Source: a virus (Duplodnaviria > Heunggongvirae > Uroviricota > Caudoviricetes). From it: 6,757 nucleotides of DNA. The position numbers were made by a program, and so were the translations under genes. The stretch is from IMG/VR virus record IMGVR_UViG_2526164604_000021. One strand, given 5' to 3'. A model generated the notes under the pieces. The model saw only the letters and a list, made by a program, of their open reading frames with translations, was not told the origin of the DNA and did no database searches. Shown piece after piece: positions 1,396 through 2,705 of this stretch (its first letter is position 1; each line of letters starts with the position of its first letter).

Positions 1396-1420
1396 TGAAC
1401 CGCCCCGGTTTTCCTGGAGA
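1396..1420. repeat. IS terminal inverted repeat (orfB-proximal end)
   Basis: tgaaccgccccggttttcctggaga is the reverse complement, with 3 mismatches, of 2681..2705. Confidence 0.85.
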
Positions 1421-1437
1421 GTGTTTTATCTGTGAAC

Positions 1438-2328
1438 TCAGGCTGCCAGATCATCGTTTCCGATGGAAGCATAATAAGCTTTTTCTGCTTCTGCCGGAGG
1501 AGTATGGCCCAGCCTTCCCAGCAATCGTCGATTGTTATACCAGTCCACCCACGTTAGTGTGGCCAGTTCCACTTCTGCACGGTTTTTCCAGCTCTTACGG
1601 TGTATTACCTCCGCTTTGTAAAGACCATTGATGCTCTCAGCCATCGCGTTGTCATACGAGTCGCCTGTACTCCCTGTTGATGCCAGTAATCCGGCTTCTT
1701 TTAGTCGCTCCGTATAGGCCAGTGACACATACTGAGAGCCTTTATCGCTGTGATGGATGGTGCCAGACGGACGACGGGCCCACAACGCCTGCTCCAGCGC
1801 ATCCAGCACGAATGTCGTTTCCATAGACGATGAGACCCGCCACCCCACGATGTATCCGGCAAACACATCAATGATAAACGCCACATAGACGAAGCCCTGC
1901 CATGTGCTGACGTAAGTAAAATCAGCCACCCACAGCTGGTCAGGTCGTTCTGCCACGAACTGACGGTTTACGCGGTCGCCTGCGGCAACGGCTTTCCGGC
2001 TGATGGTCGTACGGACCTTTTTACCCCGGAGAACACCGGCAAGTCCCATAACCGCCATGAGACGTGCCACTGTACATCTGGCCACCCTGATTCCTTCCCG
2101 TAACAACTGACGCCAGACTTTACGCACACCGTACACCTGATGATTTTCATCGTATACGCGCTGTATCTCTCTCTTCAGCCAGTCGTCGTGCTGCGCACGG
2201 GCACTGCGTTTATCCGGATGATGTCGCTGTTGCTGACAATGGTAATACGTTGACGGGGCAATATGCAGTTCGCTGCATACCGGTCCGACCCCGTACTGCT
2301 CACGCAGCTTATCCAGCAGTGGCATCAT
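1438..2328 (-). CDS. IS3-family transposase OrfB (DDE catalytic domain, 296 aa)
   Basis: Translation contains the retroviral-integrase-like DDE core (WVADFTYV ... HHSDKGSQY ... [15 protein letters not shown]). It overlaps orfA in the -1 frame. Confidence 0.9.
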
Positions 2329-2651
2329 TTTTTCCAGAGGCGGTCGAACTCCGCCTTCGCAAAATAAGCGGAAGCCTGGCGAAGGATATCGTTACTGCGG
2401 CGCAGTTCACGATTTTCACGTTCCAGCTCTTTCAGACGCTGACGTTCAGCGCTGGTGAGCCCACCATCACCGCCCCCGGTATCCCGCTCATGCTGGCGAA
2501 CCCAGACACGCAGAGTCTCCGGCGTACAGCCAATCTTTGGGGCAATGGAACAAATTGCCGCCCACTGTGAGTCATATTCATCCTGACTTTCCAGAACCAT
2601 ACGAATCGCCCGCTGACGGACTTCGGGGGAAAAACGAGTATTTTTAGTCAT
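2325..2651 (-). CDS. IS3-family transposase OrfA (helix-turn-helix DNA-binding subunit, 108 aa)
   Basis: Translation [23 protein letters not shown]... has an HTH-like N-terminus and a leucine-zipper-like C-terminus ([21 protein letters not shown]). It ends in CTG GAA AAA AAT GA, an A6 slippery run overlapping the orfB start, consistent with programmed -1 frameshifting. Confidence 0.9.
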
Positions 2652-2680
2652 CCTGTTTACCTCTTTCTCAGGGAGTTTAG

Positions 2681-2705
2681 TCTCCAGGATTTCCGGGGCG
2701 GTTCA
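2681..2705. repeat. IS terminal inverted repeat (orfA-proximal end)
   Basis: tctccaggatttccggggcggttca pairs with 1396..1420. Confidence 0.85.

Follow-up and report, generated by a model that had tools for sequence, protein, structure and literature searches.

An IS629 copy in prophage Sp1 of Escherichia coli O157:H7 with a 333-bp deletion flush with its left inverted repeat and without a target-site duplication

The stretch of DNA analysed here (the window, 6757 bp) carries a complete IS629 whose ends lack a target-site duplication, and we found that this allele is a normal insertion that later underwent a deletion starting exactly at the end of the left inverted repeat (IRL) of the element. 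Given that both the empty site and an allele with a duplicated TTA are extant, the site was first empty, then received a normal insertion that duplicated TTA, and finally lost the 333 bp that directly adjoin the IRL. For the full reading, in which an ordinary IS629 insertion was followed by an IRL-anchored 333-bp deletion, most likely by aberrant one-ended intramolecular strand transfer, we estimate a probability of about 60%.

Results

The window belongs to a decayed lambda-like prophage

The window matches chromosomes of E. coli O157:H7 directly downstream of tRNA-Thr (thrW), in a region annotated in strain Sakai as "prophage Sp1, lambda-like phage"; it is the defective lambda-like prophage Sp1 of E. 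coli O157:H7, at thrW. Sp1 is a heavily decayed lambdoid prophage without functional lytic genes to regulate. The integrase (1-975) is truncated, and P is a truncated stub after which the tail-fibre genes follow, while OR/PR, cro and cII are all present in the window. On the minus strand lie the operators OL1 (1209-1225, one mismatch to lambda), OL2 (1233-1249) and OL3 (1253-1269), the promoter PL (1235-1207; -35 TTGACA, -10 GATACT) and the gene of a lambda-type cI repressor of 237 aa (3424-4137). Comparison with the immunity region of phage lambda (OL-rexB-rexA-cI-OR) showed that all six operators of the window match those of lambda, with a single mismatch in two of them and none in the other four, that cI carries four substitutions (4/237 residues) relative to lambda cI, and that the Sp1 insertion point caattggTTAtgtgtttt is conserved in lambda. 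The two differ in that lambda carries rexAB where the phage lineage of Sp1 carries one NYN-domain gene, a difference that is independent of the IS.

Other parts of the window carry marks of decay as well. The start of lambda N, including its arginine-rich motif, is retained in an ORF at 866-1111 (minus strand) with 85% identity over 46 aa, after which the sequence diverges; N was fused or truncated by a deletion, and the same deletion took everything between N and the integrase fragment. Within gene O (5275-5320), one ori iteron has been duplicated exactly, as a 23-bp tandem repeat, resulting in a fifth iteron and a frameshifted O. This duplication is absent in strain 26_141088, which has an intact O, and in phage ev099. 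The boundary of the Pin-invertible tail-fibre segment lies at ~6441-6464, and the segment continues from there onward.

The IS629 copy is complete

The element occupies positions 1396-2705 on the minus strand (1310 bp, TG...CA ends). The preliminary description had presented it as complete, with both inverted repeats and both ORFs, and this was confirmed with exact coordinates. The terminal inverted repeats are 25 nt long and 88% complementary (TGAACC...GGTTCA); the right one (IRR, 1396-1420) lies downstream of orfB and the IRL (2681-2705) upstream of orfA, the last base of the IRL abutting the 333-bp deletion. Both reading frames are on the minus strand, orfA at 2325-2651 (108 aa, HTH_Tnp_1 domain) and orfB at 1438-2328 (296 aa, HTH_21 and rve (DDE) domains). 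orfB is translated as part of an OrfAB fusion via -1 frameshifting. A programmed frameshift CDS is annotated by NCBI at matching coordinates in sister genomes, and the orfA/orfB overlap is spanned by an ALIL frameshift-stimulating pseudoknot (2254-2370, minus strand; Rfam RF01497, E = 4.7e-32) that scores 121.5 bits against a threshold of 50 bits.

NCBI labels the element as IS1203 family; in the O157 literature its name is IS629. Our use of the name IS629 rests on near-identity to the copy listed by Rump et al. 2011 (PMC3271280) as IS629 site IS.29, located in prophage Sp1 with the left flank CAATTGGTTA; the coordinates in TW14359 (304028-305337) and the flank CAATTGGTTA agree with Table S2 of that paper. 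The window copy is 99.92% identical (one difference in 1310) to the copies at the same site in ERL04-3476, TW14359 and F8492, and 100% identical to the copy in F6667. The sole difference from the ancestral copy, common to the window and F6667, is G14T in the IRR (position 1409), and otherwise the window copy equals the ancestral one, including the IRL marker bases 1295-1297. We considered G14T as a marker of a foreign IS and rejected it as uninformative, because the T state is common and the affected end is the undeleted one: T at base 14 of the IRR is present in at least 1079 records, prevails in an IS629 subtype of 95% identity and is also found in another Sp1 copy. The change arose by new mutation or by a short gene conversion. 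At the same end of the element, a weak hybrid promoter-like site (1371-1399, minus strand; 9/12 matches) faces OL/PL, with the tip of the IRR supplying the -35 and the flanking DNA the -10.

As described before, the element is co-directional with cI and ORF166 and lies between ORF166 and OL3/OL2/OL1-PL. It had also been proposed that the insertion increases OL-OR spacing by 1.3 kb and may thereby affect long-range repressor looping. The spacing did increase; the amount, however, is smaller. The OL1-OR1 distance of 2986 bp in the window compares with 2407 bp in lambda and 3319 bp in the TTA-duplicated allele; in phage ev099, the uninterrupted relative, it is 2007 bp, which makes the net change +979 bp. 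Since the window exceeds lambda by only 579 bp and since the prophage is heavily defective, we consider an effect of the IS on OL-OR repressor contact to have been overstated.

An ancestral allele carries the duplication and the missing 333 bp

The flanks of the element read ...caattggtta-IS-gtttggcggc..., and no 3-bp or 4-bp direct repeat can be placed at the two ends of the window copy (tta / gtt), in line with the initial observation that ggtta on one side and gtttgg on the other do not form a direct repeat of 3-4 bp. Comparison with ERL04-3476, F8492 and the empty site identifies the TTA at 1393-1395 as what is left of the original 3-bp target-site duplication, namely its left copy: the site is ggTTA-IS-TTAtgtg in ERL04-3476 and F8492, and ggTTAtgtg when empty. 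Over a longer stretch the junctions of ERL04-3476 are caattggTTA-IS-TTAtgtgttttt, a clean 3-bp duplication. Altogether, six complete O157 genomes carry the same IS with the same left junction, the clean TTA duplication and 333 bp to its right, and the sequence that follows the 333 bp in these six genomes is identical to the window from 2706 onward.

Alignment to ERL04-3476 placed window positions 1-2705 at 6001-8705 and positions 2706-6757 at 9039-13090 of the corresponding locus, and revealed, the deletion aside, a single base difference in 6757. The deletion junction is at 2705/2706, where the 333 bp present in ERL04-3476 (8706-9038 of the same locus) are missing and no microhomology (0 bp) is present. 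The base directly outside the IRL is the first one lost, so that the deletion is flush with the element, while the IS is intact and the left junction unchanged. To view the site without the element, we used a 300-bp query made of the ERL04-3476 left flank, one TTA and the right flank. This query ran without a break in phage ev099 (99.7% identity) and in another 65 E. coli genomes, of which three matched it at 100%, so that the comparison with related prophages, which the preliminary description had proposed, returned a contiguous site with a single TTA; the empty-site core caattggttatgtgtttt is present in phage lambda itself. Extant genomes show directly the site before insertion, the original insertion between its two TTA copies, and how far exactly the deletion reaches, starting flush with the IS end.

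Two explanations had been offered for the missing duplication, an adjacent deletion and recombination between IS copies. The former is borne out by the six TTA-duplicated genomes, which hold the 333 bp that are absent in the window. Recombination with a distant IS copy is at odds with the data in that both flanks are syntenic and only 333 bp are missing. A clean duplication of 3-4 bp, which would speak for simple transposition, is absent from the window copy and present in the ancestral allele, as an adjacent deletion predicts. Target-site duplication is a feature of the insertion event and not of the element.

The lost segment contained a terminator and the end of an NYN-domain gene

The 333 bp carried the right-hand TTA, the terminator of the operon and the 3'-terminal 266 bp of the 858-bp NYN-domain gene, whose remnant (2706-3296, minus strand) belongs to a protein of 285 aa when intact. 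The frameshift of this gene was already in place before the 333-bp deletion. A 1-bp deletion at 2839/2840 (a T missing after a run of five A) shifts the frame and gives rise to "ORF166" (2796-3296, minus strand), which consists of ~152 native codons and a frameshifted tail. The 1-bp deletion is present in the window and in ERL04-3476 and absent in DEC4E, phage ev099 and QA-1986 630; NCBI annotates the NYN-domain gene of QA-1986 630 as split, though this strain lacks the deletion at 2839/2840. A PADLOC search with the intact NYN protein yielded weak partial matches only (E = 2e-4 and 1.4e-3) and no defence-system assignment. The idea that the IS event could explain the loss of rexAB did not hold, as phage ev099 and the 65 empty-site E. 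coli prophages carry the NYN-domain gene in the rexAB position (858 bp, intact or frameshifted) without an IS. In the window, a 38-codon junction ORF (2677-2793, minus strand) runs from the NYN remnant into the IRL and is a marker of this allele.

The lost terminator-like hairpin lay on the operon strand and reads AACCCGGCCACCGAGCCGGGTT followed by TTCTTTG; on the same strand, no other terminator-like site was found between cI and the IRL. The loss of this hairpin leaves the cI-NYN operon without any terminator-like structure ahead of the IS, and read-through into IS629 orfA can be envisaged. PRM-driven repressor transcripts might then read into orfA, tying transposase supply to lambda-repressor autoregulation and altering IS629 activity in the F6667 lineage, a consequence that we regard as improbable. 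Between cI and the NYN-domain gene there is also a promoter-like site (3377-3405, minus strand; TTGACG, 17-nt spacer, TAGATT), which could transcribe the NYN remnant, and now also the IS, independently of PRM.

The window allele is rare and one of at least ten at this site

The IRL junction of the window was found as a single piece in 1 of 5,426 complete genomes, that of F6667, and the exact protein of the 38-codon junction ORF in only 3 public contigs; the 333-bp-deletion allele is rare. F6667 has one mismatch to window 1-6464, and beyond this point its Pin-invertible tail-fibre segment is in the opposite orientation. The left junction, by comparison, was found in 71 genomes.

Comparing the alleles over window 1393-2710 and loci L001-L010 and L014-L017, we observed at least ten alleles at this IS629 site across O157:H7 genomes, the window allele included. 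These are the empty site, the TTA-duplicated insertion, the flush 333-bp deletion, a ~564-bp deletion keeping TTAT, an inverted IS, three IS-less scars, a hybrid IS with 5.6 kb deleted, and a loss that extends past the examined Sp1 locus into hyxA. The ~564-bp deletion, found in 60 genomes (IS-TTATggctg), is the allele of TW14359 and joins imperfect TTATG/TTAAG repeats. Site IS.29 of EC4115/TW14359 (PMC3271280) shares with the window the same IS, orientation and left junction CAATTGGTTA, whereas the right flanks differ: in EC4115/TW14359 (TTATGGCTGT) the TTA is kept and the loss starts 4-5 bp from the IS, while in the window (GTTTGGCGGC) the TTA is lost and the missing 333 bp are flush with the IS. 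Some DNA is kept in each allele but missing from the other, so the two arose independently of each other from the TTA-duplicated allele.

The remaining alleles are more diverse. Strain 146N4 carries a different IS629 variant in inverted orientation, and its different IRL variant rules out a simple flip of the same IS copy. Sakai, 26_141088 and DEC4E have no IS at the site and carry scars with 1-3 bp of junction microhomology. Strains 319, 350 and 644-PT8 keep the left junction and carry a hybrid IS in which an IRL with the marker of a tail-fibre copy (1295-1297 AAC) is joined to DNA ~5.6 kb away, a structure that points clearly to inter-IS recombination. In 180-PT54 the IS is joined to hyxA DNA, past the examined Sp1 locus. 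The IS-anchored losses on the IRL side are graded, from ~564 bp through ~5.6 kb to beyond the examined locus, and this series supports an IS-anchored deletion in the window as well. In some strains further IS629 copies are located in the tail-fibre/Pin region of Sp1 (9328-10475 of locus L006; 8341-9650 and 10117-11426 of locus L007), and one copy of this region carries the IRL variant 1295-1297 AAC, which makes the two inverted repeats more symmetrical.

Discussion

Adjacent deletion is a well-known side effect of the very active IS629. The IS629 polymorphisms of O157 studied by Ooka et al. in 2009 are reportedly among the examples of IS3-family adjacent deletions. In the reading that we favour, one IS629 copy went into the sequence that separates OL3 from the terminator of the cI-NYN operon in Sp1 and duplicated TTA; later, in the lineage of the window and F6667, a deletion anchored on the IRL terminus removed the next 333 bp, leaving the IS and its left junction untouched. 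The mechanism would correspond to the "sloppy strand transfer" model: the 3' end of the IRL, cleaved by the IS629 transposase, would attack the neighbouring flank and not the other IS end, and the bridged strand would be fixed by replication or repair as a flush deletion, the classical IS-adjacent deletion. We infer that the deletion depended on the transposase and arose in a single step.

The usual mode of transposition of IS3-family elements is copy-out-paste-in, and their route to adjacent deletions is debated. In the long-term E. coli evolution experiment (LTEE), adjacent deletions of IS3-family elements without target-site duplication follow a prior insertion (14/83 IS events), and those of IS150 were all without duplications and all occurred after an earlier insertion (PMC11708052). 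In reporter plasmids carrying IS3, the DNA between the IRL and the reporter was deleted and IS3 remained intact (PMC8860574). The window resembles these cases in its prior normal insertion, in the outward loss of the flank from the IS terminus, in the intact IS and in the lack of a duplication; we see no difference of substance, and the window adds a case from nature whose ancestral allele still exists. Absence of the duplication is common for the element, since among the IS629 sites of four O157 genomes only 21 of 47 had one (PMC3271280). Against strand transfer stands the G14T change in the IRR, which this model does not explain.

Judged by the final sequence, a one-step strand-transfer deletion and a second nearby insertion followed by recombination would fit equally well. 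According to the latter, a second IS629 in the same orientation inserted 333 bp to the right, duplicating GTT, and homologous recombination between the two copies removed one IS together with the 333 bp. The product would be base-for-base identical to the window, with a right flank beginning GTT-TGGCGG as observed, and inter-IS recombination is demonstrable at this very site in 319, 350 and 644-PT8. Nevertheless, two rare events within 333 bp are required, and the predicted intermediate, in which two IS629 copies bracket the 333 bp with the junction ...ttctggcgtgtt abutting TGAACCGCC, i.e. TTCTGGCGTGTT followed by TGAACCGCCCCGG, was found neither among the 5,426 complete genomes nor in the junction-ORF search. 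As a single piece the IS-gtttgg junction is confined to F6667, with the junction ORF on no more than the 3 contigs, and the right end of the window IS bears no marker of a foreign copy, though a donor of identical sequence would leave no trace. We therefore hold this route to be unlikely, albeit the strongest of the alternatives.

A break followed by end joining of the type ascribed to the IS-excision enhancer (IEE) is more doubtful still. IEE promotes the excision of IS629 as well as deletions in its flanks (Kusumoto et al. 2011, as described in PMC9943667 and bioRxiv 10.1101/2023.06.07.543989); it is nearly always present in O157, and IEE-dependent deletions beside IS629 extend from a few bases to >40 kb (PMC9943667). 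Element and host are the same as here, microhomology of 1-3 bp marks the IS-less scars of Sakai, 26_141088 and DEC4E at the same site, and the TW14359 allele joins short imperfect repeats. The known outcome of IEE is, however, mainly loss of the IS, whereas the window retains an intact IS and has a junction that is flush with the IS end and without microhomology; IEE-type end joining fits the IS-less scars better than the window. Finally, the IS might have landed without a duplication in a DNA break or in a site that already lacked the 333 bp, the TTA alleles then being independent insertions. De novo IS insertions that make no duplication and are linked to rearrangements have been proposed (PMC11708052). 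For the window this history is effectively refuted, as left junction, orientation and IS sequence are identical in 71 genomes, one base in 6.7 kb separates the window from a TTA-duplicated strain, and two independent insertions are very unlikely to hit one and the same phosphodiester bond.

Earlier work has described this element, its site and the phenomenon, and the 333-bp allele, with ordinary insertion followed by IRL-anchored deletion as its preferred history, is a rare new instance of ordinary biology. No phenotype is expected, because the affected genes sit in a dead prophage and were inactivated beforehand, and the importance of the allele is slight beyond bookkeeping. What it provides is a clean view of how an IS629 copy loses its target-site duplication, with both the ancestral and the empty allele extant, and it indicates that an IS without duplication in O157 need not mean a large rearrangement. 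With the window allele in 1 of 5,426 complete genomes and 3 public contigs, the site could serve as a lineage marker. In compact form the site also documents the outcomes of IS629 and IEE activity in nature, and its series of at least ten alleles could discriminate between strand-switch and break-repair models of IEE action.
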